A DNA stretch of 37,737 nucleotides from Eubacteriales bacterium (GCA_045595265.1 JAZOAA010000023.1:1-37737); one strand, 5' to 3'; counted from the stretch's first letter, positions 21,952 through 32,904 are shown. Made by a program: numbers and translations. The notes: a model not told the origin generated them from the letters alone.

Positions 21952-21980
21952 TTGAATATTTTCAAGATATGCGATAAAAT
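21952..21980 (+). promoter_or_regulatory. Promoter of the AraC-family regulator
   Basis: TTGAAT (21952-21957), 17 nt spacer, TAAAAT (21975-21980). The inverted repeat TTTTCGA-n8-TCGAAAA lies just upstream (21927-21948). Confidence 0.55.
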
Positions 21981-22005
21981 AATATGTAGAAAGGTTGGTG
22001 AGCTT

Positions 22006-22752
22006 ATGCAGTTGAAAAATGCGGTTATTACCTCTGTTTTGGGCGTATTTACAATTCCGACAAGCAAGGATAGATTTTTGAAAATAGTAAATCGACCAAG
22101 CTATGCCATATCATTTTGTACCGATGACGGAGTTATCGTCTATAATAATGACGGAAAGAAAACCGTTTCTGACAAAAACCGCGCAGTTATATTGCCTCAG
22201 GGTCAAAACTACACGCTTTACAACGAAGAAGGCGGCAATTTTCCAATAATAAATTTTTTAACCGAAAAACCAATAACCGAGGAATTTCTTGAAATCAAAA
22301 TTAAAAATCCACAGGTTTACATAAGTAGTTTTGAAAAAATGCGTGCTTTATGGCTTAGCGGAAACGACCAAGCAAAGCTCTTTTCTATACTTTACGATAT
22401 GCTGTCAAGGTTGTGTAAAGAAAACGTACCAATAAATCCGGTGCTTTCAGGCTCAATCAATTTTATTTACGAGAATATACACAACCCACTTTTAACAAAT
22501 ACGCTACTTGCGCAAAGAGCGAAAGTAAGCGAGGTTTATTTCAGACGGCTGTTTAAGCAAGAATACGGAACCACACCAAAGCAGTATATACTTAATCTAA
22601 GGATAGAAAACGCAAAAAAATTATTAAGCGAGGGCATAAGCTCTATCGGTAAGATATCTAAATCATGCGGTTTTTCAAGCGTTTATCATTTTAGCAGAGA
22701 GTTTAAGCTTATTACTGGATATGCACCAAGCGAATATTCAAGGAAAAGTTGA
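22006..22752 (+). CDS. AraC-family transcriptional regulator
   Basis: C-terminal double HTH (LLAQRAKVSEVYFRRLFKQEYGTTPKQY...GFSSVYHFSREFKLITGYAPSEY) and an N-terminal cupin-like sensor. Start at ATG 22006, since the track's TTG at 21952 is the -35 hexamer. Confidence 0.85.
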   Translation: MQLKNAVITSVLGVFTIPTSKDRFLKIVNRPSYAISFCTDDGVIVYNNDGKKTVSDKNRAVILPQGQNYTLYNEEGGNFPIINFLTEKPITEEFLEIKIKNPQVYISSFEKMRALWLSGNDQAKLFSILYDMLSRLCKENVPINPVLSGSINFIYENIHNPLLTNTLLAQRAKVSEVYFRRLFKQEYGTTPKQYILNLRIENAKKLLSEGISSIGKISKSCGFSSVYHFSREFKLITGYAPSEYSRKS

Positions 22753-22777: not shown

Positions 22778-22814
22778 TGATATGAAAATTTTTAACTAAC
22801 GAGAGGTTTACGTG

Positions 22815-24305
22815 ATGAAAAAATACATTATGGCTCTTGACCAAGGCACAACAAGCTCAAGATGTATTCTTTTTGAAAAATCCGGAAGAATCGCAAGCCT
22901 TGTTCAAAGAGAATTTGCCCAGATTTTCCCCAAGGAAGGCTGGGTCGAGCATGACCCGATGACGATATGGTCAACGCAGATGTCTGCTGTTACGGAGGCG
23001 CTTCTCAAAATTGGTGCTAACTGGGATGAGATCGCCGGAATAGGTATAACTAACCAGAGAGAAACGATTGTTCTTTGGGACAAAAAGACGGGTGTGCCCG
23101 TATATAACGCAATCGTTTGGCAATGCAGAAGAACCGCAGATTTCTGCAAAAAACTTGAGGCGGACGGTTATGGCGAAATGATAAGATCAAAAACAGGGCT
23201 GCTTATAGACCCATATTTCTCTGCCACCAAAATCGCGTGGATTCTCGAAAACGTTGAAGGTGTGAGAAAGAGAGCAGAAAGAGGCGAGATTTGTTTTGGA
23301 ACAATCGACACGTGGTTAATTTATAATATGACGGGAGGAAAGGTACACGCTACCGACTACTCAAACGCGTCACGTACTATGCTCTTTAATATAAATACAC
23401 TTAAGTGGGATGAGGATCTACTTAAGCTCTTTAATATACCCGAGTCAATCCTTCCGGATGTCTCCCCCTCCTCGCATATATTCGGCTACACAGACCCTGC
23501 GATATTCGGTGCTTCTCTTCCTATTGCGGGTGTTGCAGGAGATCAGCAGGCAGCGCTCTTCGGTCAATGCAGATTTAACGAAGGAGAATTAAAGAACACC
23601 TACGGTACGGGCGGATTTTTACTGATGAATACAGGCTCGGAACCTTATATTACGGACTCAGGGCTTCTGACGACTATCGCTTGGGGACTTGACGGCAAGG
23701 TCACATATGCACTTGAGGGCTCGGTTTTTGTTTGCGGTGCTGCGTTGCAATGGCTGCGCGACGGGCTTAAAATCATAGATTCTGCTGCCGACAGCGAATA
23801 TTATTCCAAAAAGGTTTCGGATTCGGGCGGTATTCTAGTCGTTCCCGCATTCTCCGGTCTCGGCGCTCCTTGGTGGGATCCGTATGCCAGAGGAATTATT
23901 ATCGGTATTACACGTGCTACAAATAAATATCACATCATAAGAGCTACTCTCGAGTCAATGGCGTATCAGACCGCAGACGTAATCGATCTTATGGAAAAGA
24001 CGGCGAATATTAAGATTTCGGCACTCGCAGTTGACGGCGGCGCCTCGGCAAACAACCTACTTTTAGAGTTCCAGGCAGATATACTCGGAGTTCCGACAGA
24101 ACGTCCTGAATGTGTGGAAACAACCGCTCTGGGTGCAGCATACCTTGCAGGACTTGCAACCGGATTCTATTCTTCTCTCGATGAAATCAAAGAGAATAGA
24201 AAAATATCAAAAACATTTACTCCAAATATGGAAGAAAAATCAAGAGAAGCTCTCCTAAACAGATGGAGACGCGCAGTTGAGCGCTCTCTTAATTGGAGCG
24301 AATAA
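22815..24305 (+). CDS. glpK: Glycerol kinase
   Basis: [20 protein letters not shown]...[13 protein letters not shown]...FHGGY-type sugar kinase blocks; about 496 aa. Confidence 0.96.
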
Positions 24306-24316
24306 GTACAAAAAAC

Positions 24317-24353
24317 GACCTTGCTTTCTTAAACACGGCAAGGTCTATTTTTA
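24317..24353. terminator. Bidirectional terminator between glpK and the radical SAM gene
   Basis: GACCTTGC-n13-GCAAGGTC, flanked by AAAAAAC on the left and TATTTTTAT on the right, so there is a U-tract on both strands. Confidence 0.8.
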
Positions 24354-24411
24354 TTCAAAAGATAAGATTTTACCTATTTACTATATTCATAACAAACAAC
24401 AAAACATAGTG

Positions 24412-25809
24412 TTATTTATTCTTCAAATGGTAATATGCTTTCATTTTTGTTTTTGCCTGTAAGCACTGTACATCAGAGCGTTTCAAATAACCGTTTTCAA
24501 GATACCCCATTCCCGGACAATAATTACAAAAGGCGCAGTAATCCTCTTTATAACATTCTTTGCAGTCTGCCAAAGTAACTTGATGCCATTTATAAAGACG
24601 GCTGGCTTTATCTTTTTCCATTGCGGCTTGCCATATATCTTCCATGGATTTTTCATTTAGGTTTCCAACAGAATACGGTAAAGATACGCAAATTACCACC
24701 TCTCCGTTAGGTGTAACAGTAAGCCCTGTATATCCGCCGAGACACGGTGTTGAGTCTGCTATGTTTGTTATATCAAGAGGCTTGAATTTTTCATCGAGAT
24801 ATAGTGGCGAGTTCGGATTAGTGTAAAGTTCGAACAACTCATCTTCTGAAAGGAGAAATTTCATCGTCTTTTTGTTACCTTCAATAGTGGGAATCAAAGA
24901 TATATCGGCAATTGAAGTTGCGCCTATTTCAGCAGCATATTCCTTAACTTTTATACAATCCATGCAATTGAAATTAAGCAAAAAGTTTTTGATTTGAACA
25001 TTCAAATTATCGCCTTTCATTTTGTCTATCAGCGAATATGTCTTTTTGAATGATCCCTCGATGTCTGTTACTCTGTCATGTGTTTTTTCATTTGTACTAT
25101 AAAGGCTTACGCAAATTCTATACGGAAATAACTCCTTTACTTCGGTATACAGTTTTTCGTTATCCGCAAAAACTTGACCGTTAGTAAATATTTCCACCGA
25201 AATGTGCTTACTTCTTGCATATTTTATAAGGTCTAAAAAGCGAGAATGAAGAGAAGATTCTCCGCCCGAAAAAGTTATACGAAAGCAACCCATTTCATAA
25301 GCATCGTCTATTGCTTTTTTACACATGTCGTAATCAATTTCCACATTGTTCATGTGCTTGGGATTGTAGCAATGTACGCATTTTAGGTTACAGCGATACG
25401 TAAGCTCAAAGAACAGCGAAAACATAAACTTGTTCTTAAAAAGCCATGTTTGCATTTGCTCGATAAATGAGGTTTCCTCCCCCGAGGTGGCGATATCGTC
25501 GCAAACCGGTGCATAGCTTGTACTTAACTGTTGTTCGCTTTTTTTGAAAACAATAAGGCCTTGTTCTGCGAGAGAATCAATAAAATCATAAACTTGCTCC
25601 GCTACTCCGTTTTTCTCAGCAAAATCAGCAAGTTCCTCGTCACAAACCCTATCATATAGCAGCTTCCATAAATCGCTGGATATGCCGTCTAACTGAATAT
25701 ATTCGTGGCTTTTTTCATTTGAAATGTAAGTTCTGCTTTCTTTTTTTCCGAAAAAATATGTATGACAGGAAATCCAGTTTGGTATGAAGATTTCATCTAC
25801 GCTTATCAT
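24412..25809 (-). CDS. Radical SAM/SPASM peptide-modifying enzyme with an N-terminal PqqD-like (RRE) domain
   Basis: 465 aa. About 100 N-terminal aa resemble a PqqD/RRE winged helix (YIQLDGISSDLWKLL...FIDSLAEQGLIVF). CNLKCVHC is the CxxxCxxC motif. The C-terminal Cys-rich region (CLGGYTG...TPNGEVVIC...CKECYKEDYCAFCNYCPG...C) is a twin auxiliary-cluster SPASM pattern. ATGA overlap with the upstream gene. Confidence 0.85.
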   Translation of the reverse strand: MISVDEIFIPNWISCHTYFFGKKESRTYISNEKSHEYIQLDGISSDLWKLLYDRVCDEELADFAEKNGVAEQVYDFIDSLAEQGLIVFKKSEQQLSTSYAPVCDDIATSGEETSFIEQMQTWLFKNKFMFSLFFELTYRCNLKCVHCYNPKHMNNVEIDYDMCKKAIDDAYEMGCFRITFSGGESSLHSRFLDLIKYARSKHISVEIFTNGQVFADNEKLYTEVKELFPYRICVSLYSTNEKTHDRVTDIEGSFKKTYSLIDKMKGDNLNVQIKNFLLNFNCMDCIKVKEYAAEIGATSIADISLIPTIEGNKKTMKFLLSEDELFELYTNPNSPLYLDEKFKPLDITNIADSTPCLGGYTGLTVTPNGEVVICVSLPYSVGNLNEKSMEDIWQAAMEKDKASRLYKWHQVTLADCKECYKEDYCAFCNYCPGMGYLENGYLKRSDVQCLQAKTKMKAYYHLKNK

Positions 25810-26708
25810 AATATAAATGCCTCTTTGTTTAATATTTTTTGTATACGAACGCTTTGGTTTATAAATTCCGGATTTATAACATTATATTCTTCAATAAAAG
25901 TATCATAAATGTCAAATAAATTATATTCTTTTAACAAAAGCGCTCTTAGCTGAAGACATATCTCTGCTCCGTATAGAACTTCTTTTTCCTTACGTTCGTT
26001 GGGAATCTGTGTTCCGTCGGTTCCGTCAAAAAGCATAATGTCAGGCGCTGTTAGCCACTCATAGTCAACTACTTCTGCCAGCATGGTTACGTTGCCGTAA
26101 TCAAGAGTGTCGTTTATAAAATGATTTTTGTGCAGTATTGCAACGCTTTTTGCCAGTTCCCTAGTGAATCTATTTGGATACTCGTCAACAGATATTCCCC
26201 AATAATCACAACAATATTTTATAACAGATTCTTTTTCGTTTTCGGTGAGATACATTAAATCTGCCACGCGAAAAGGGCACTTTAACTTTGTATAAATAAT
26301 ACACGGCGAAACTAATGCTCCGTTGCTGAATTTTATATTTTTAAGGAAATCATATTTTTTCGGCAACAGGAAATCAGATATTTTTTTATAATATAATACC
26401 TTTGGAAATCTATCTGAAATCTTTTCTATTTTGCGGCTTACTTCTAATTCTCTTATGGCAGAGGAGGATGGATACAAACCGAAAATTAACTCTTCGTCTT
26501 TGGTGGAAATATAAATTTGAGGACCGTTATAGTTCCAGCCACCTCCTTTTACGTTTATCCAGTTATAATCGCCTGCTTTTATCGCAACTGCTCTTCCATG
26601 AAAAGGAGAAACATGTGTGGCTTTTACATTTTCGTAGTTGATTTCGTCAGGAACAAAAATTCTTCCCAGCGTTTCGTCATTAAAAATTTTGAATTTTTCG
26701 AATTTCAT
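25806..26708 (-). CDS. Hypothetical protein, possible ATP-dependent (kinase-like) peptide-modifying enzyme
   Basis: 300 aa from ATG 26708 (AGGAAAA RBS); the track start at 26756 lies inside the upstream hairpin. No family recognised. Weak motif resemblance to the kinase fold: RAVAIKAG, RELEV, HFINDTLDYGNV (Brenner-like) and VVDYEW (IDFEY-like). Confidence 0.55.
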   Translation of the reverse strand: MKFEKFKIFNDETLGRIFVPDEINYENVKATHVSPFHGRAVAIKAGDYNWINVKGGGWNYNGPQIYISTKDEELIFGLYPSSSAIRELEVSRKIEKISDRFPKVLYYKKISDFLLPKKYDFLKNIKFSNGALVSPCIIYTKLKCPFRVADLMYLTENEKESVIKYCCDYWGISVDEYPNRFTRELAKSVAILHKNHFINDTLDYGNVTMLAEVVDYEWLTAPDIMLFDGTDGTQIPNERKEKEVLYGAEICLQLRALLLKEYNLFDIYDTFIEEYNVINPEFINQSVRIQKILNKEAFIL

Positions 26709-26729
26709 ATTTTTATTTTTCCTATATTC

Positions 26730-26775
26730 AAAAATGTAAATCCGCCAGATATGCAAAAACCTGCCTGGCGGATTT
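26730..26775 (-). terminator. Intercistronic hairpin / leaky terminator between the peptide gene and the enzyme genes
   Basis: Perfect 11-bp stem AAATCCGCCAG / CTGGCGGATTT (26765-26775 / 26738-26748) with a 16-nt loop. It is followed on the minus strand by ACATTTTTG. No U-tract on the plus strand. Confidence 0.6.
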
Positions 26776-26798
26776 ATGTTAGCATTATGCCGGCAATA

Positions 26799-26900
26799 TT
26801 AGCCCATTTTTGCACGAATACCGCAAGAATGGTCAGTCATCTTACCGCAACCGGACATACTAGCAACGTGCTGTGCAGCCTTCTTTGTAATCTTAAGCAT
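26799..26900 (-). CDS. 33-aa putative RiPP precursor peptide MLKITKKAAQHVASMSGCGKMTDHSCGIRAKMG
   Basis: Hand-translated. ATG 26900 lies 7 nt after AGGAGG; TAA at 26799-26801. It is first in an operon with a radical SAM/SPASM-RRE enzyme and has its own consensus promoter. Below the 60-aa ORF-track cutoff. Confidence 0.65.
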   Translation of the reverse strand: MLKITKKAAQHVASMSGCGKMTDHSCGIRAKMG

Positions 26901-26926
26901 TTGATAATCCTCCTTTTTTGATTTTT

Positions 26927-26943
26927 GAGTTATATTTTAACTC
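26927..26943. promoter_or_regulatory. Palindrome GAGTTA-n5-TAACTC (candidate operator) in the peptide-gene 5' UTR
   Basis: Perfect 6+6 inverted repeat between the -10 element and the RBS of the peptide gene. It shares the AGTTA/TAACT half-site with the repeat at 26967-26994. Confidence 0.45.
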
Positions 26944-26952
26944 AGCGAGAAT

Positions 26953-26981
26953 ATTATATACCCTTTTTAACTGTTTGTCAA
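26953..26981 (-). promoter_or_regulatory. Promoter of the peptide/maturase operon
   Basis: Minus strand: TTGACA (26976-26981), 17 nt spacer, TATAAT (26953-26958). Confidence 0.7.
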
Positions 26982-27006
26982 TAGTTTTAGTTAAAAATGC
27001 TATAAT
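26967..27006 (+). promoter_or_regulatory. XRE-gene promoter (extended -10) with flanking TTAACT...AGTTAA inverted repeat
   Basis: TGCTATAAT at 26998-27006 with a weak -35 overlapping the opposite promoter's -35. TTAACT (26967-26972) and AGTTAA (26989-26994) bracket both -35 elements. Confidence 0.5.
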
Positions 27007-27042
27007 TAAAATGAACAAAAAAGCATATAAGGGGAAGAAACG

Positions 27043-27315
27043 ATGAATGTTGGTAAGAAAATACGCGATGCAAGAGAAGATATGGATTTATCGCAGCGCG
27101 ATATGGCAAATCTTATTCCCATGAATCAGTCCAATTATTCTAAAATAGAACGTGACATTCAGGAACCTAATATGGACCAGCTCCGCAGGATTTGTCAGAT
27201 ACTCAATATTGATCCCCGATATTTGTTAAATCTGGGGGAGTACTCTTCTGTAACAGATGCTGATATTACTTTGCTCAAGGATATAAAGCGTTTTATAAAA
27301 GAACATAATGTATAA
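27043..27315 (+). CDS. XRE/Cro-C1-family HTH transcriptional regulator
   Basis: 90 aa. IRDAREDMDLSQRDMANLIPMNQSNYSKIERDIQEPNMDQL is a canonical HTH_3 pattern. Divergent from the peptide operon. Confidence 0.85.
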   Translation: MNVGKKIRDAREDMDLSQRDMANLIPMNQSNYSKIERDIQEPNMDQLRRICQILNIDPRYLLNLGEYSSVTDADITLLKDIKRFIKEHNV

Positions 27316-27316
27316 T

Positions 27317-27346
27317 AAAAACGCAGCGTATAAACGCTGCGTTTTT
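27317..27346. terminator. Bidirectional terminator between the XRE gene and rsmA
   Basis: AAAAACGCAGCG-tataaa-CGCTGCGTTTTT; perfect stem with A/T tracts on both sides. Confidence 0.85.
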
Positions 27347-27347
27347 A

Positions 27348-28205
27348 TTAGTTTTCAGACAAATAATTTGCAAGATTTGCAAAATCCTCGGTCGATAGGC
27401 GCTCTCCTCTGACCTTCTCGTCCTTACCGATAGCGACAATAGCTTCGGTAATCTGTTCTTTAGAGTAAACGGGGAGCTTTGCAGAAATAGCGTTCTGGAG
27501 AGTTTTTCTTCTCATCTCAAACGCGGCTTTAATAAGGTTGAAGAAGAGCTTTTCATCCTTTATTTCAAACGGCGGCTTATCATATAGGTCTATACGAACA
27601 ACGGCGCTGTCCACCTTTGGTGCAGGTACGAAGCACCCCGCCGAAACCTTAAAGAGTCTGCGCACGCTTCCGTAATAACCCAGAACGGCGGTTATTGCGC
27701 CGTAATCCGCGCTTCCCTCCTTCGCCGCGAGTCGAGTGGCAACCTCGTTCTGTACCATTACCGTGATGGACGAAAGCTTTACGTCCGACTCTAGAAGCCG
27801 CATAAGTATCGGAGTTGTGATATAATAAGGAAGATTTGCGCAAACGGATACGGGCATACCTTCAGAATACTCATCTATCAGCGCGCGAAGATCGACCTTC
27901 ATAATATCGTCATTAATGATTGTGATATTGTCAAAATCGGCAAGAGTTTTCGAAAGTACGGGAATAAGTCCGCGATCTATCTCAACTGCTACTACCTTCT
28001 TGTACCTCATTGCCAGCTCTTGTGTAAGGCAGCCAATGCCGGGACCGATCTCGAGGATCATTCTATCCTCTGTATCGGCGCAGTTATCAGCTATCTGCTC
28101 GGGTATCATTCTGTTAATAAGAAAGTTCTGACCAAATTCCTTGCGGAATGTGATTCCTGCATCGGCCATTACCGATTTTATTACAGATAGATTACATAAG
28201 TCCAT
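27348..28205 (-). CDS. rsmA: 16S rRNA (adenine1518/1519-N6)-dimethyltransferase RsmA/KsgA
   Basis: FGQNFL, EIGPGIGCLT SAM motif and NLPYYITTPI. ATG 28205 follows GAGGGAA. Confidence 0.94.
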   Translation of the reverse strand: MDLCNLSVIKSVMADAGITFRKEFGQNFLINRMIPEQIADNCADTEDRMILEIGPGIGCLTQELAMRYKKVVAVEIDRGLIPVLSKTLADFDNITIINDDIMKVDLRALIDEYSEGMPVSVCANLPYYITTPILMRLLESDVKLSSITVMVQNEVATRLAAKEGSADYGAITAVLGYYGSVRRLFKVSAGCFVPAPKVDSAVVRIDLYDKPPFEIKDEKLFFNLIKAAFEMRRKTLQNAISAKLPVYSKEQITEAIVAIGKDEKVRGERLSTEDFANLANYLSEN

Positions 28206-28232
28206 AATTCCCTCAAAAATCAACATAGAGTT

Positions 28233-28262: not shown

Positions 28263-28338
28263 TGGAGCTGATGAGGGGACTTGAACCCCTGACCTGTTGA
28301 TTACGAATCAACTGCTCTACCAACTGAGCCACATCAGC
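28263..28338 (-). tRNA. tRNA-Thr (anticodon CGU), CCA encoded
   Basis: GCTGATGTGGCTCAGTTGGTAGAGCAGTTGATTCGTAATCAACAGGTCAGGGGTTCAAGTCCCCTCATCAGCTCCA folds by hand into a full cloverleaf: 7-bp acceptor, GCTC/GAGC D stem, GTTGA/TCAAC anticodon stem with loop TTCGTAA, and AGGGG/CCCCT T stem with a TTCAAGT loop. Confidence 0.93.
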
Positions 28339-28458: not shown

Positions 28459-29067
28459 TTATCTACCGATAAACATCTGTGTCCAGTAATTTTCATCGGC
28501 AACGTACCCTACGCCGATATGCGTGAATGACGAATTAAGTATATTTGCTCTGTGGCCTGATGAATTCATCCAGGCATTTACAACGGCGGCAGGTGTTTTT
28601 TGTCCTCTTGCAATATTCTCGCCAGCCGTACGGTAAGATATTCCAAAGCTCTTCATCATATTAAACGGCGAACCATAGGTAGGACTTGTGTGTGAAAAAT
28701 ATGAATTATCCTTCATGTCCTGTGACTTATATCTCGCGACCCTGGAGAGCTGCCAATCCTGCTCAAGTGCCTTAAGTCCTCTGCTCGTTCTTTCTACGTT
28801 TACAAGTCTTACAACCTCTTTTTCATAGCTTGTAACGCTACCGTCGACGGTTGGAATGTTGATAACATCGCCCGGATATATAAGTGCGGTGTTCTTTATC
28901 TGTGGGTTTGCCGAGGCAAGTTCAGAGAGGCCTACCTGATAGGTTACGGCTATTTTCCACATTGTATCGCCTTTTTTCACCGTATGAGTTGTAGCAGCCG
29001 AGGAAGTAACTGAAAATACAGTCACAAATGATAAGCAAATTAAAAACGTGCTGATGATTTTTTTCAT
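28459..29067 (-). CDS. Secreted LysM-domain plus CAP/SCP (YkwD-like) domain protein
   Basis: Signal peptide MKKIISTFLICLSFVTVFSVTSSA, LysM (HTVKKGDTMWKIAVTYQVGLSELASANPQI..IYPGDVINIP), and a CAP domain (VNVERTSRGLKAL...FSHTSP...GENIA...WMNSSGHRANIL). Confidence 0.85.
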   Translation of the reverse strand: MKKIISTFLICLSFVTVFSVTSSAATTHTVKKGDTMWKIAVTYQVGLSELASANPQIKNTALIYPGDVINIPTVDGSVTSYEKEVVRLVNVERTSRGLKALEQDWQLSRVARYKSQDMKDNSYFSHTSPTYGSPFNMMKSFGISYRTAGENIARGQKTPAAVVNAWMNSSGHRANILNSSFTHIGVGYVADENYWTQMFIGR

Positions 29068-30507: not shown

Positions 30508-32904
30508 TTATCCGAGTGTTAAAACGGTAACACCCGCATCTCCTTCGCCATATTCTCCGTGACGGTAAGACTTAATTCGCCTATCAGACTTGAAATATTT
30601 CCAAAGTGCAGCTCGAAGCGCACCCGTACCCTTACCGTGAATTATTCTGACTGTGGGAATATTCATAAGCACGGCATCATCAATATACTTATCAACAACA
30701 AACCACGCATCGTCGCCTATCATTCCCCTTACGTCAATTTCGGGCTTGAACGAAGAGTTGACAGTCTTTTTGACCTTGCCTTCATTAACCTTGGGCGTTT
30801 CTCTTGAAACGTATTTTATACCGTCAACTATTAAACGTATCTTGTCCTCTGTCACCTTGGTTTTGAGAATACCTGAGGTAACAGATATTTGCCCCTTCTT
30901 ATCAGCTAGAGCTGTGACAACGCCCTCTTTTGATATAGTGGTTAGAAAGACCTTATCCCCTACCTTGAGGGGTCTTGGAAGCTTATAGTCCTCATCAAGA
31001 GATATATCTTTAATAGATATGCCCTCCATAAGACTCTCGCTCTCACGAAATCTTTTACGCATTTCTTCTCTTGCGTAATTCATCATTTCGTTGCGACGAT
31101 CCTTATCCTCTTGTTTTTTCAACTCTTCAAGCTGACGGAATATAAACTCGCTCGATGCTCTCGCACTGTCCAAAATCTGCCTTGCTTTAAGGGTCTGTTT
31201 TTGAATTTCATCCTCACTTTTTGCAATTTTCTCTTTAAGCTCGGCTTCAGCCTTCGCCTTAAAAGCTTCGTATTCAGAGCGCATTTGTTCGGCTCTATCG
31301 CGTTCCTTTTCCATCTCAATACGGTTTGTATCAAGACGTTCTATAACGTCTTCAAAACGCTTATTATCGCGTTCTATAAGTTTTTTTGCTCTATCTATTA
31401 TCTGCTCTGAAATGCCAAGTCTCTCGGAAATTGCAAATGCATTAGATTTTCCGGGTGTGCCAACCACGAGCTTATATGTCGGTCTTAACGTTTCAACATC
31501 AAATTCGCAAGATGCATTCTGTACCCCTTCTGTCTCAAGCGCATACACCTTAAGCTCGGAATAGTGAGTAGTTGCCGCCGAAAGCGCTCCGTTTTCCTTC
31601 GTACGCTCGAGAATCGCTGTTGCGAGCGCGGCACCCTCAATGGGATCCGTACCCGAGCCAAGCTCATCAAACAGCACTAGTGAGCCGTTCCCTACGCGCT
31701 TCAAAATATCCGCCACGTTGACCATATGAGATGAAAAGGTAGAGAGAGATGCCTCAATGCTCTGTTCATCGCCTATATCAACAAGTATCTCCGAAAAAAT
31801 ACCCATGACGGAGCCTTCGCTTGCGGGTATTTGCAGCCCCGATTGCGTCATAAGCGCAAAAAGTCCCATTGTCTTAAGGGTTACGGTTTTTCCGCCGGTG
31901 TTTGGACCTGTAATTACCAGCGTTTTATATCCATCGCCAAGAGAAACGTCTATCGGTACAACCTTATCGCGCGAAATAAGCGGATGACGCGCGCGTTTTA
32001 GGCTGATCAAGGGATAGCTTACGATACTAGGCTTCTCCGCTTTCATATTGTTTGCAAGAGTTGCCACGGCAAAATAAAAGGCGATGTCTGTAATATTATG
32101 ATAATTCAAGCTTATTGCAGATGATGCCTCCGCACACTCCGCTGACAAAGCGGATAAAATCCTGTCAATTTCGTGCTCCTCTGCTGCGTTCAGCTCTCTT
32201 AACTCATTATTAGCTTGAACGATAGACATTGGCTCAACGAAAAGAGTCGCGCCGGAGCTTGAGGTGTCGTGTACAAGACCGGATAATTCGTTTCTATACT
32301 CGCTCTTTACCGGAACTACGTATCTGCCGTTACGCATGGTTACGATGTTTTCCTGCAAATACTTAAGTCTGACACCGCCCATAAAGCTTTGAAGAGTGTC
32401 CTTGATTTTATTGTTAGTATTTTTAATCTTCCGTCTTATTTCGGCAAGCTCGGGGCTCGCCTCATCAGCGATCATATCCTCCGATAATATAGTCCGCGAT
32501 ATTTTATTCTCGAGCGGTCTATTCTCTATAAGACGTGAAAAAACAGGGTCGAGTGAGGTAGAAAACGGCTTGTCCGTGCTGATGTAATCAGAAAGCGCTC
32601 TGGCGGATCTGAAGAGCGAGGCAATTTCTAAAAGCTCAACCGGTGAAAGCTGTGCGCCCTTATACGCGCGGTCTGCCGAAGAACAAACTCTCTCCCCCGC
32701 AGAAAAGGAAGGATATCCTTTTGCATTTATCAGCCTTTTCGCATCGTCAGCTTTTAGTTGCCTTTCAAGCACCAGATCGTAATCGTCCGACGGAACAAGT
32801 GTACGCGCTCTTGCCTTTGCGCCTTCGGTGGCTGCACAGTCAACAAGCATGTCTATTATTTTATCGAACTCAAGAGTTCTTAACGTTTTTTCAGAAAAAT
32901 GCAT
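30508..32904 (-). CDS. mutS2: Endonuclease MutS2
   Basis: 798 aa. MutS ATPase block ITGPNTGGKTVTLKT...DELGSGTDP, a long coiled region, and a C-terminal Smr domain (DVRGM...IHGKGTGALR). Confidence 0.95.
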   Translation of the reverse strand: MHFSEKTLRTLEFDKIIDMLVDCAATEGAKARARTLVPSDDYDLVLERQLKADDAKRLINAKGYPSFSAGERVCSSADRAYKGAQLSPVELLEIASLFRSARALSDYISTDKPFSTSLDPVFSRLIENRPLENKISRTILSEDMIADEASPELAEIRRKIKNTNNKIKDTLQSFMGGVRLKYLQENIVTMRNGRYVVPVKSEYRNELSGLVHDTSSSGATLFVEPMSIVQANNELRELNAAEEHEIDRILSALSAECAEASSAISLNYHNITDIAFYFAVATLANNMKAEKPSIVSYPLISLKRARHPLISRDKVVPIDVSLGDGYKTLVITGPNTGGKTVTLKTMGLFALMTQSGLQIPASEGSVMGIFSEILVDIGDEQSIEASLSTFSSHMVNVADILKRVGNGSLVLFDELGSGTDPIEGAALATAILERTKENGALSAATTHYSELKVYALETEGVQNASCEFDVETLRPTYKLVVGTPGKSNAFAISERLGISEQIIDRAKKLIERDNKRFEDVIERLDTNRIEMEKERDRAEQMRSEYEAFKAKAEAELKEKIAKSEDEIQKQTLKARQILDSARASSEFIFRQLEELKKQEDKDRRNEMMNYAREEMRKRFRESESLMEGISIKDISLDEDYKLPRPLKVGDKVFLTTISKEGVVTALADKKGQISVTSGILKTKVTEDKIRLIVDGIKYVSRETPKVNEGKVKKTVNSSFKPEIDVRGMIGDDAWFVVDKYIDDAVLMNIPTVRIIHGKGTGALRAALWKYFKSDRRIKSYRHGEYGEGDAGVTVLTLG

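Follow-up and report, generated by a model that had tools for sequence, protein, structure and literature searches.

A cassette encoding a two-cysteine peptide, a SelO-like kinase-fold enzyme and an RRE-radical SAM-SPASM enzyme as a probable new RiPP family

In the window, the whole 37,737-nt stretch of DNA that was analyzed, we found a self-contained four-part module in which an XRE regulator accompanies a three-gene operon coding for a short precursor peptide, a SelO-like enzyme (‘mini-SelO’) and an enzyme with RRE, radical SAM and SPASM domains. That the module is a cassette for peptide maturation is a conclusion we hold with good confidence. The best explanation, which we consider probable, is that it represents a new family of RiPPs in which the peptide is cross-linked by the radical SAM enzyme and receives AMP or phosphate from the mini-SelO; this chemistry is inferred. 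Established are the set and order of the genes, the conservation of the peptide, the folds of both enzymes, their co-inheritance and the lack of any other conserved neighbor. We found no description of a peptide, radical SAM and SelO-like combination for modified peptides.

All the features listed in the original prediction, which had been made from the window sequence alone, were found in place, with the operon on the minus strand. The promoter (26981-26953) matches the TTGACA-17 nt-TATAAT consensus at 12/12 positions, with the -35 at 26976-26981 and the -10 at 26953-26958, and is the sole perfect site in the range 24000-27600. Two inverted repeats extend the regulatory region to 26926-27004: a 16-nt repeat (26957-26972 and 26989-27004) brackets the -35 and a 7-nt repeat (26926-26932 and 26938-26944) is located just downstream of the -10. 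Both are candidate operators, a role that is inferred. The ribosome-binding site predicted to be strong was read directly as AGGAGG at 26909-26914, with an 8-nt gap to the ATG of the peptide gene (26799-26900, 33 aa, MLKITKKAAQHVASMSGCGKMTDHSCGIRAKMG), and similar sites precede the peptide gene in related loci.

The peptide gene is separated from the enzyme genes by a stem-loop and a T-run (26730-26776). The 11-bp hairpin described earlier has perfect arms (26765-26775 and 26738-26748); RNAfold extended it to 13 pairs with a folding energy of -23.0 kcal/mol (z = -3.3), and TTTTT follows at 26730-26734. Of the 11 loci with a spacer at this place, 9 show an equivalent hairpin, while in loci without a spacer the peptide gene and the next gene abut or overlap. 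The element is likely a leaky terminator or attenuator. The 300-aa gene (25806-26708) starts with the ATG at 26708, in agreement with the starts of its homologs. It is joined to the 465-aa gene (24412-25809) by an ATGA overlap at 25806-25809, as had been reported, and the latter gene is translationally coupled to the former through this overlap. The comparison with other loci indicates that the features of the locus are not due to chance.

Every related locus examined has, next to the enzymes, a peptide that shares the C-x7-C-G core. The 33-aa ORF with its strong ribosome-binding site recurs upstream of the enzymes in 20/20 related genome loci. Six more distant loci, with a different gene order and SelO-like proteins of only ~20-36% identity, also carry the peptide (5 distinct peptides), and a peptide profile search detected 84 peptide clusters, none of them named. 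Purifying selection acts on the small ORF (mean pN 0.30 compared to pS 0.78, pN/pS 0.39, 190 pairs). On this conservation, an argument from sequence alone, the 33-aa ORF is a real gene. Absence of a small ORF from homologous loci would have refuted the original prediction; since the ORF is conserved at this position, that objection is removed.

Peptides of the loci were pooled with those from the database search, which gave 96 distinct cores. The leader spans approximately residues 1-14, with a conserved L-K-I-T/S, and the core approximately residues 15-33 (M-S-G-C18-G-K-x-x-D23-x-x-C26-G27-I-R-A-K-x-G33). All 96 cores share C18, C26 and G27. At position 23 there is D/E/N/Q in 93 cores and T, K or A in three loci that are very distantly related, and exactly six residues follow CG in 93/96 cores, 84 of the cores ending with Gly. 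Ring positions 21, 22, 24 and 25 are variable. No Ser, Thr or Tyr was seen at a conserved fixed position among the 96 cores, and 12 of them have none at all from residue 17 onward; therefore, not every core offers a classical hydroxyl acceptor.

Pfam and NCBIfam models, the HMM searches suggested earlier, were run on all three proteins. The peptide had no NCBIfam match and no meaningful Pfam match, and the 300-aa protein matched neither collection. The 465-aa protein matched Radical_SAM (PF04055, 63.7 bits, cut-off 29.5), SPASM (PF13186, 38.6 bits, cut-off 21.5) and, as a borderline case, PqqD (PF05402, 22.6 bits, just under the cut-off of 23.4). The motif C140-x3-C144-x2-C147 is invariant in 40 homologs and, together with PF04055, meets the sequence requirements of the radical SAM superfamily. 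SPASM membership is met as well, as judged by PF13186, which matched 40/40 family members; the CxxxCxxC motif and the C-terminal multi-cysteine pattern noted previously were both recovered. Seven cysteines of the SPASM region (C356, C374, C419, C425, C428, C431, C449) are invariant in the 40 homologs. With respect to the canonical pattern C-x9-15-G-x4-C ... C-x2-C-x5-C-x3-C ... C, the spacing is a variant, because C416, the first cysteine of the canonical CxxC, is not conserved and there is an extra invariant pair C282/C285.

The AF2 model of this enzyme (pLDDT 91.8) has a high-confidence N-terminal beta-beta-beta-alpha-alpha-alpha domain, with strands 13-18, 26-31 and 36-41 and helices 43-52, 57-66 and 70-82. 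The best solved structures found by Foldseek were CteB, SuiB and SkfB, of which the top matches CteB and SuiB have an N-terminal RRE, and PqqD was detected at E <= 0.01 in 7/40 family members. On the strength of the model, the requirement for an N-terminal PqqD-like RRE is met; binding of the leader by this domain is inferred. These results bear out the assignment to RRE-radical SAM-SPASM peptide maturases made in the original prediction.

The enzyme reached no curated NCBIfam equivalog; the 25 models listed were all far below their cut-offs (AhbD 95.7 vs 500, MftC 81.7 vs 265, PqqE 74.4 vs 381, AlbA 72.2 vs 850, StsB 67.5 vs 625, SkfB 52.1 vs 300). Assignments to a sulfatase maturase or a cofactor family, and to any of the named maturases (AlbA, SkfB, StsB, MftC, PqqE, AhbD/NirJ), were thus rejected. 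Membership in a known non-peptide family, which would have counted against the original prediction, was not reached at these cut-offs.

As had been claimed, no peptidase, exporter or immunity gene was found in any locus neighborhood examined, and besides the XRE regulator no other neighbor is conserved around the related loci. Such an absence would suit a pathway akin to those of mycofactocin and PQQ, yielding a cofactor or another intracellular small molecule from a peptide, with the short peptide as a sacrificial scaffold on which the radical SAM/SPASM enzyme and an ATP-using enzyme build a redox or metal-binding moiety kept in the cell. The precursor is indeed very short and keeps to a strict length, its C-terminal tail being fixed as well, the MftC model aligns along nearly its whole length (residues 132-455, E 5.3e-23) and PqqE is among the structural matches. 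Still, we regard a cofactor as an improbable product. The MftC and PqqE scores given above are far under the cut-offs, there is no conserved linked dehydrogenase or cofactor-using gene, the patchy horizontal spread, XRE switch and low GC would be unusual for a core cofactor, and the variable ring positions better suit a diversifying bioactive peptide.

Among known systems, CteB/SCIFF of Clostridia has the same domain order, and CteB was the best structural match (5why/5wgg, E ~1e-14). In both systems the loci are minimal and lack a protease and an exporter, the hosts are anaerobes of the Clostridia type and the cysteine-containing precursor has an N-terminal leader. On the other hand, SCIFF has six cysteines in ~45 residues, and the two cysteines in 33 residues found here, with no sequence similarity, do not satisfy SCIFF precursor membership; besides, the module described here has a SelO-like enzyme and an XRE regulator as integral parts. 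SkfB was the closest solved sequence (E 9.5e-11), and alignments with the AlbA and StsB models cover the greater part of the catalytic and SPASM region; however, the scores of these sactipeptide synthases are far too low and their precursors are unrelated.

Thioether-forming radical SAM systems with Asn, Asp or Glu acceptors include NxxcB (NxxC motif), PapB/freyrasin (C-x3-D) and QhpD (Cys-Asp/Glu). The spacings [D/E/N/Q]23-x-x-C26 and C18-x4-[D/E/N/Q]23 resemble these donor-acceptor motifs, with a single motif per peptide here compared to repeats there. A cysteine thioether as the outcome of the radical SAM step remains tentative, with a chance that we put slightly short of even. The architecture and the invariant C18 and C26 are consistent with a sactipeptide or ranthipeptide; they are the only such evidence, the thioether is unproven and the class is not assignable.

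For the 300-aa protein, the original prediction had found no fit to known RiPP tailoring families; there is none, and the protein is now placed as SelO-like. Its AF2 model (pLDDT 87.6) has an order of secondary structures that fits a kinase-like fold. The top PDB matches in Foldseek were YdiU/SelO, and out of 110 PDB matches at E <= 0.001 all the 50 listed were kinase-like or SelO/YdiU. According to this model, the requirement for the protein-kinase-like fold superfamily is met. In a viral structure library the matches included nidovirus ORF1ab segments and kinases; the nidovirus NiRAN domain is a relative of SelO/YdiU.

Relatives of the protein form ~130 clusters among 1.84 billion representative proteins. 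A profile of the wider superfamily aligned with E. coli SelO in hhalign (94.8% probability, E 5.6e-8, 169 columns), while a close-family profile did not match (E 0.28). The SelO model PF02696 had no match, even at E <= 10, in the window protein and 28 close relatives. Among 91 superfamily members it matched weakly in only 4 (best E 3.1e-4) and was the joint most frequent weak match, with the best E-value. Taken together, the profile and the model suggest a SelO-like kinase-fold enzyme, a distant relative of the AMP-transferring SelO. It has 300 aa compared to ~480 in SelO/YdiU (PF02696), lacks the C-terminal regulatory domain and aligns only from SelO residue 83; moreover, SelO/YdiU stands alone, whereas the mini-SelO is linked to a peptide and a radical SAM enzyme.

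The key residues are H37, R39, K54, E87, R147, D150, N206 and D215, of which the conserved K54, E87, N206 and D215-Y-E correspond to the beta3 Lys, alphaC Glu, catalytic-loop Asn and DFG-like Asp of a bilobal kinase-like protein. The hhalign pairs (E. coli SelO numbering) are K54=K107, E87=E130, R147=R177, N206=N247 and D215=D256 (YdiU mutant set in 10.1101/692707). Of the six nucleotide- or metal-binding residues of P. syringae SelO (K113, E136, R176, R183, N253, D262; residue roles in PMC8097203), five are kept, including the equivalent of R183/R177, the arginine that in SelO holds the gamma-phosphate of the flipped ATP (PMC8097203). The sixth, R176 (equivalent to R170), aligns with T140, and D246 of SelO/YdiU aligns with Gly205. 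Because of these two replacements the active site is not identical to that of SelO.

The loss of the catalytic D246 raises the possibility of a non-catalytic pseudokinase that acts as a scaffold for the peptide or the radical SAM enzyme, the radical SAM step being the sole chemistry. The tight translational coupling and co-evolution of the two genes and the lack of a conserved hydroxyl acceptor in the peptide would agree with it. Against a scaffold, conservation over the 91 superfamily members, down to ~16-20% identity, reaches at least 90% for K54, R147, N206 and D215, and the consensus has an R-E pair at 86-87, a pattern that fits a working active site; also, the radical SAM enzyme already has its own RRE for peptide binding. 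We consider the scaffold very improbable. That the mini-SelO catalyzes a reaction on the peptide has, in our estimate, an even chance, and if it does, transfer of AMP seems rather more probable than that of phosphate. An HRD-like Asp (D200) is present, so ordinary phosphoryl transfer stays open. A sugar substrate cannot be excluded either, given that more remote relatives occur in glycan-synthesis clusters without a radical SAM enzyme and that one radical SAM-linked locus has an adjoining GT9 glycosyltransferase.

Pairwise identities of the mini-SelO and the radical SAM enzyme correlate with r = 0.915, a value reached in 0/2000 Mantel permutations; as far as sequences can tell, the two are co-inherited and co-evolve. 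The divergent 90-aa XRE gene noted earlier (27043-27315, plus strand; Pfam HTH_3, E 2.1e-11) has counterparts in most loci: a small XRE gene on the opposite strand, at most ~350 nt upstream of the peptide gene, was seen in roughly 13-16 of 22 related loci. Judged by this recurrence it is a part of the module. GC content of the module is 34-37% compared to 40-48% in the flanks, and the host genomes were assigned to Clostridia, Erysipelotrichaceae, Spirochaetia and Gastranaerophilales; the module appears to have been acquired horizontally.

An adjoining XRE gene in most loci, low GC, patchy distribution and the integrase genes that flank locus L024 are also what a conflict system (toxin-antitoxin or anti-phage) could display. 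In such a system a SelO-like effector would act like the HipA or Fic toxins and AMPylate or phosphorylate cellular proteins, with its regulator or antidote supplied by the peptide and the radical SAM enzyme and with the XRE protein as repressor. Known SelO/YdiU enzymes do modify proteins (10.1101/692707, PMC8097203), and the window XRE protein matches defense-associated helix-turn-helix models in PADLOC. However, PADLOC gave no match for the 300-aa protein, and the match of the radical SAM enzyme to pVip is limited to the generic core (residues 134-283); RRE and SPASM, which this enzyme also has, are absent from viperins. The XRE gene is divergent, unlike in hipBA, where the regulator shares a transcript with the kinase gene, and the cassette was absent from the plasmid, phage and IMG/VR collections searched. 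Furthermore, the hallmark of RiPP maturation is a leader-core peptide paired with an RRE enzyme. A conflict role thus has little chance in our judgment. As a separate candidate, a HipBA-type toxin was rejected for the 300-aa protein: it has no HipA, Pfam or PADLOC match and the XRE gene is on the opposite strand.

For the preferred reading, a new RiPP family, we propose the following mechanism. Expression would be gated by the XRE protein bound to the inverted repeats at the consensus promoter, and the leaky terminator would yield more precursor than enzyme. The RRE of the radical SAM enzyme would bind the leader through the L-K-I-T/S strand, and its radical SAM/SPASM domains would cross-link the core via the invariant cysteines, the likeliest product being a thioether that links residue 23 (D/E/N/Q) with Cys26 or Cys18. 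The mini-SelO would hold ATP in the flipped orientation of SelO and transfer AMP, or less likely phosphate, to a hydroxyl group or to the carboxylate of the C-terminal Gly. Without a dedicated protease or exporter, the product would act within the cell or be handled by housekeeping factors; operation of this kind has also been proposed for minimal SCIFF ranthipeptide loci of Clostridia.

A bolder version, which we regard as unlikely, is a new RiPP class in which the thioether at [D/E/N/Q]xxC is combined with either of two fates of AMP. The mini-SelO would adenylate the carboxylate of the C-terminal Gly and a cysteine (or lysine) would close a thiolactone or lactam ring, or AMP would stay on the peptide as a peptide-nucleotide conjugate. 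Carboxylate activation fits the fixed six-residue tail, the C-terminal Gly and the lack of a conserved hydroxyl acceptor. SidJ is a kinase-fold enzyme that adenylates carboxylates, and a pseudokinase, cited in a reference list, reportedly forms a nitrile. The hosts of the cassette are uncultured gut anaerobes, and either product, if real, would be a signaling or antagonistic molecule of these bacteria.

In addition to the features predicted originally, a terminator-like hairpin followed by T6 was read directly on the minus strand at 24310-24345 (GACCTTGC...GCAAGGTC; hairpin 24317-24345, T-run 24310-24315). It was missed by the automatic scan because its loop exceeds 8 nt. This element closes the operon and may also serve the glycerol kinase gene, which is convergent.

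All parts of the cassette named in the original prediction were found on the DNA, within 24412-26981 of the minus strand and in the divergent XRE gene; this observation was confirmed, and the interpretation of the cassette as a RiPP-like pathway was supported. Transcription would start from a sigma-70 promoter, TTGACA-17-TATAAT (26981-26953, minus strand), the sole perfect site in the region with a score of 12/12. The ribosome-binding site AGGAGG is located on the same strand 8 nt 5' of the 33-codon peptide ORF (26799-26900), which is followed by a stem-loop with a T5 run (11 perfect pairs, 13 by RNAfold; -23.0 kcal/mol, z = -3.3). The 300-codon ORF (25806-26708) and the 465-codon ORF (24412-25809), both on the minus strand, share an ATGA overlap, while the 90-aa XRE helix-turn-helix gene (27043-27315) is divergent to the operon. 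Reading of the sequence added to this list a terminator-like hairpin with a T6 run at the operon end (24310-24345).

Using the 300-aa family as query, we scanned a single genome for each species and found 20 loci. A peptide gene was present just 5' in all 20, nearly always with a strong ribosome-binding site, and 19 of these genes encode exactly 33 aa. The family consensus was MLKITKVVxxSVAxMSGCGKxxDxxCGIxAKxG, and the mean pS of the gene was 0.78 versus a mean pN of 0.30 (190 pairs). Searched against 5.8 billion proteins, a profile from an alignment headed by a 45-aa relative matched 84 peptide clusters, almost all of 33 aa and all unnamed. Among the 96 distinct cores pooled from all sources, C18, C26 and G27 (numbering of the window peptide) were each present in 96. 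Position 23 was D in 78 cores, E in 10, N in 4 and Q in one, with T, K and A found once each. Exactly six residues followed the C-G pair in 93 of the 96 cores, 84 had Gly at the C-terminus, and position 31 was K or R in 94. The ring positions 21, 22, 24 and 25 varied freely; a hydroxyl residue was fixed at no core position, and 12 of the 96 cores had none from residue 17 on. The leader residues L2 and I4 were nearly invariant, as an RRE-bound beta-strand would require. The presence in 20/20 loci, the pN below pS and the conserved cores establish that the predicted 33-aa ORF is a real gene, and a chance small ORF is excluded on the same grounds.

In the one locus with a different peptide length (L009:5897-6010), the frame continues beyond the usual stop (…CGIREKMVDLQS…), which is probably a frameshift or a genome-bin assembly error.

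Only the peptide, 300-aa and rSAM genes were common to the loci; the flanking genes all differed. The rSAM gene was found in 18 of the 20; in L006 the contig ends before it, and the L014 cassette is decayed. The expected co-occurrence of the three genes across genomes thus held, and it extended to distant relatives of the 300-aa protein, for which we use the name mini-SelO. Locus L022 (relative P0215, profile E 2e-72) carries a divergent XRE gene, a 39-aa peptide (...SMSGCSKMTEGQCGILAKNG), a mini-SelO and an overlapping 3' gene cut by the contig end, while L023 (P0216, E 2e-60) has the order rSAM, 45-aa peptide (...SMSGCGKYSNSQCGISEKSG), mini-SelO. In L024 (P0223, E 2e-48), a 33-aa peptide (MLKISRIAKHTVISMGKCPEHREGVCGVMYRMS) is followed by an 84-aa ORF, two tandem mini-SelO paralogues and the rSAM gene. 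For P0258 (E 2e-29) we have gene order only: two 46-aa ORFs, rSAM, mini-SelO. The order rSAM, peptide, mini-SelO was observed in L026 (P0269, E 4e-17; ...VANYCTKCTKSMCGIHEKQQ) and, for P0281 (E 4e-13; ...VNAYCPKVHADTCGINVKKS), in L032 and L033, with the rSAM gene in L032 only. L027 (P0285, E 7e-13) has rSAM, peptide (MKRLKISSASSVIRMSGCPKASTGSCGIAYRFG), a GT9 glycosyltransferase and mini-SelO. The trio of a C-x7-C-G peptide, a mini-SelO and an rSAM/SPASM enzyme was therefore kept far outside the close family in differing gene orders, which favors a functional unit over accidental linkage. The association was lost past about E 1e-9; for example, no rSAM gene was found near P0304 or P0322.

Several of these loci had features of their own. 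L014 (5841-6789) retains an intact peptide gene, its mini-SelO gene is cut short near residue 262, and no rSAM gene lies downstream. The paralogues of L024 (3646-7362) have 304 and 320 aa, and the locus lies between phage-integrase-family genes; this arrangement suggests a mobile island and a duplicated tailoring step. The GT9 (heptosyltransferase-family) gene of L027 (439-4122) lies between the peptide and mini-SelO genes, and position 23 of this peptide is Thr; the product may be glycosylated, or a sugar may be the substrate of the kinase-like enzyme. The relative P0296 (E 2.9e-9; L029:857-8760 and L030) resides in a glycan/cell-envelope cluster with epimerase, GT2, PMT_2, rhodanese, GH130 and GHMP kinase genes; neither an rSAM nor a peptide gene was found in this cluster, which marks the outer limit of the peptide-linked clade.

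For the 465-aa protein, Pfam reported Radical_SAM, SPASM and Fer4_12, with PqqD slightly under threshold; PqqD reached E <= 0.01 in 7 of 40 homologs. The AF2 model (pLDDT 91.8) has an N-terminal domain of three strands and three helices, which in this model is of RRE topology. The best structural matches were CteB (E 8e-15), SuiB and SkfB, and SkfB was also the nearest solved sequence. No NCBIfam equivalog came near its own cut-off, which places the enzyme outside AlbA, SkfB, StsB, MftC, PqqE, AhbD/NirJ and the other listed families; the sole name carried by its approximately 210 known homologs is "radical SAM protein". Membership of a known non-peptide family, which would have refuted the RiPP interpretation, found no support: an anaerobic sulfatase maturase or a cofactor maturase was rejected, with NCBIfam scores far under the cut-offs. 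The possibility that the peptide is instead the source of a cofactor was considered quite unlikely. Viperin-like defense was also rejected, the PADLOC pVip match being limited to the generic rSAM core. The conserved cysteines comprise the CX3CX2C triad, seven in the SPASM region and the extra C282-x2-C285. The latter pair is part of an invariant N-C282-x-D-C285 (residues 281-285) outside the SPASM region. C416, with which the canonical SPASM CxxC begins in the window protein, is not a conserved family position. Together these features suggest a re-wired ligation of an auxiliary cluster.

The 300-aa protein had been described as an enzyme of no recognized canonical RiPP tailoring family, and sequence searches of Pfam, NCBIfam and PADLOC gave nothing usable. 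Its 92 close relatives are all of about 300 aa and all hypothetical, and when 1.84 billion representative proteins were searched exhaustively with a profile, no more than 130 clusters emerged, all of small proteins. The AF2 model (pLDDT 87.6) shows a protein-kinase-like fold. Among PDB structures, the nine top matches were YdiU/SelO (E 4.5e-6 to 5e-5, TM 0.53-0.57), with Abl and other kinases ranking next. Matches in a viral structure library were kinases and nidovirus ORF1ab segments. Very little weight was given to the cassette being a conflict system in which the mini-SelO is the effector.

The kinship with SelO could be detected at the sequence level only with a broad profile. The close-family profile A1 gave merely a weak match to the STK33 catalytic loop among PDB sequences (E 0.37) and no significant hhalign match to E. 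coli SelO (E 0.28), while the profile of the 91-member superfamily matched E. coli SelO with 94.8% probability (E 5.6e-8, 169 columns). Weak Pfam matches among the 91 members were to SelO (4, with the lowest E overall, 3.1e-4), Pkinase (4), Kdo (3) and APH (2). In this alignment, H37, R39, K54, G57, P135, R147, D150, N206 and D215 were at least 90% conserved, and G55 and G77 were invariant. Judged from these profiles, the 300-aa protein is homologous to the SelO core, yet outside the Pfam-defined SelO family.

The alignment maps K54 to E. coli K107 and P. syringae K113, which coordinates the gamma-phosphate of the flipped ATP; E87 to E130/E136, which stabilizes the Lys/gamma-phosphate interaction; R147 to R177/R183, which stabilizes the gamma-phosphate; and N206 and D215 to the metal-binding N247/N253 and D256/D262, respectively (PMC8097203). 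Lost in mini-SelO are the Arg at T140 (R170/R176), also a gamma-phosphate stabilizer in SelO (PMC8097203), and the Asp at G205 (D246/D252), for which that paper gives no role. The YdiU mutant D256A was inactive, and the same study mutated the same residue set, including D246A (10.1101/692707). By this mapping, five of the six SelO flipped-ATP residues are kept, among them one of the two arginines absent from ordinary kinases. D200, at the HRD-type Asp site, is invariant in the close family, which leaves ordinary phosphoryl transfer possible. We attach very low likelihood to the 300-aa protein being a non-catalytic scaffold.

The chemistry of the pathway can be inferred as follows. The leader would be bound by the RRE, and the rSAM/SPASM enzyme would act at Cys18 and Cys26, the two features that never vary. 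Its nearest relatives form a thioether (CteB and SkfB) or a C-C cross-link (SuiB). Residue 23 (D/E/N/Q) sits five after Cys18 and three before Cys26, a spacing that recalls the Asn/Asp/Glu thioether acceptors of NxxcB, PapB and QhpD. The residues at this position, together with the likeness to those acceptors, favor a Cys-to-residue-23 thioether, an assignment by analogy to which we give somewhat less than an even chance. The mini-SelO would most likely bind ATP and transfer AMP or phosphate. Since no hydroxyl is fixed, the candidate acceptors are the variable Ser/Thr at 16 or 22, an rSAM-made group and the C-terminal carboxylate. The carboxylate is the acceptor suggested by the constant six-residue tail and the terminal Gly; its ATP-driven activation with ring closure onto a cysteine was judged unlikely but not negligible.

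Systems in which an RRE-dependent rSAM/SPASM enzyme modifies a short Cys peptide are an established type. Pfam, NCBIfam (June 2026) and PADLOC contained neither the precursor family nor that of mini-SelO, nor the two combined, and no publication in which rSAM peptide maturation is tied to a SelO-like or kinase-like enzyme was found in a search that mostly did not cover subscription journals, where an earlier description cannot be excluded. So far, SelO-type nucleotide transfer has been associated with protein regulation and the capping of viral RNA; if mini-SelO acts on the peptide, such transfer would enter natural-product biosynthesis, and the 300-aa protein would be a compact model of the SelO catalytic core. 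The product may be an unseen signaling or competition molecule of gut and rumen anaerobes. With about 2.9 kb, three proteins and a 33-residue substrate, the cassette is suited to heterologous expression.

An HMM-based search placed a small opposite-strand XRE gene no more than about 350 nt from the peptide gene in around 13-16 of 22 loci, which makes the regulator a recurring fourth part of the module. BLAST clustering had linked the XRE gene to L019 alone, a result overturned by this more sensitive search. Two inverted repeats in the window, a 16-nt pair (26957-27004) around the -35 and a 7-nt pair after the -10, are plausible XRE operators, a role inferred from sequence. Of the 11 loci with a spacer between the peptide and enzyme genes, 9 have a hairpin with a U-run there; in loci without a spacer, the genes abut or overlap. 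A leaky terminator after the precursor gene is common in RiPP operons and yields more precursor than enzyme; by analogy, we infer that the hairpin may act in this way.

Pairwise identities of mini-SelO and rSAM were strongly correlated (r = 0.915, not reached in any of 2000 Mantel permutations). The GC content was 34-37% over the cassette and XRE gene (24200-27400) versus 40-48% in the flanks (glycerol kinase and rRNA dimethylase genes), consistent with horizontal acquisition. Host genomes were assigned to Clostridia, Erysipelotrichaceae, Spirochaetia and Gastranaerophilales. Co-variation of the enzymes, low GC and scattered hosts together indicate that the module appears to move as a unit; no cassette matches were found in plasmid, phage and IMG/VR collections. 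All genome matches were metagenome-assembled or uncultured-organism records, and the gut or rumen of rabbits, goats or sheep was the source of many; this origin would account for the system having escaped notice.

The neighboring genes in the window are ordinary chromosomal ones, none conserved beside the cassette elsewhere. On one side are the glycerol kinase gene (22812-24305) and an AraC-type regulator gene (21952-22752), likewise of low GC. The other side has genes for a LysM-CAP secreted protein, an alpha/beta hydrolase and MutS2 with an Smr domain (28459-29067 and 30508-32904, minus strand). Past an rsmA/ksgA-like gene (27348-28226), a tRNA-Thr (CGT) gene about 1 kb off the cassette (28263-28338, minus strand) is a possible integration landmark.
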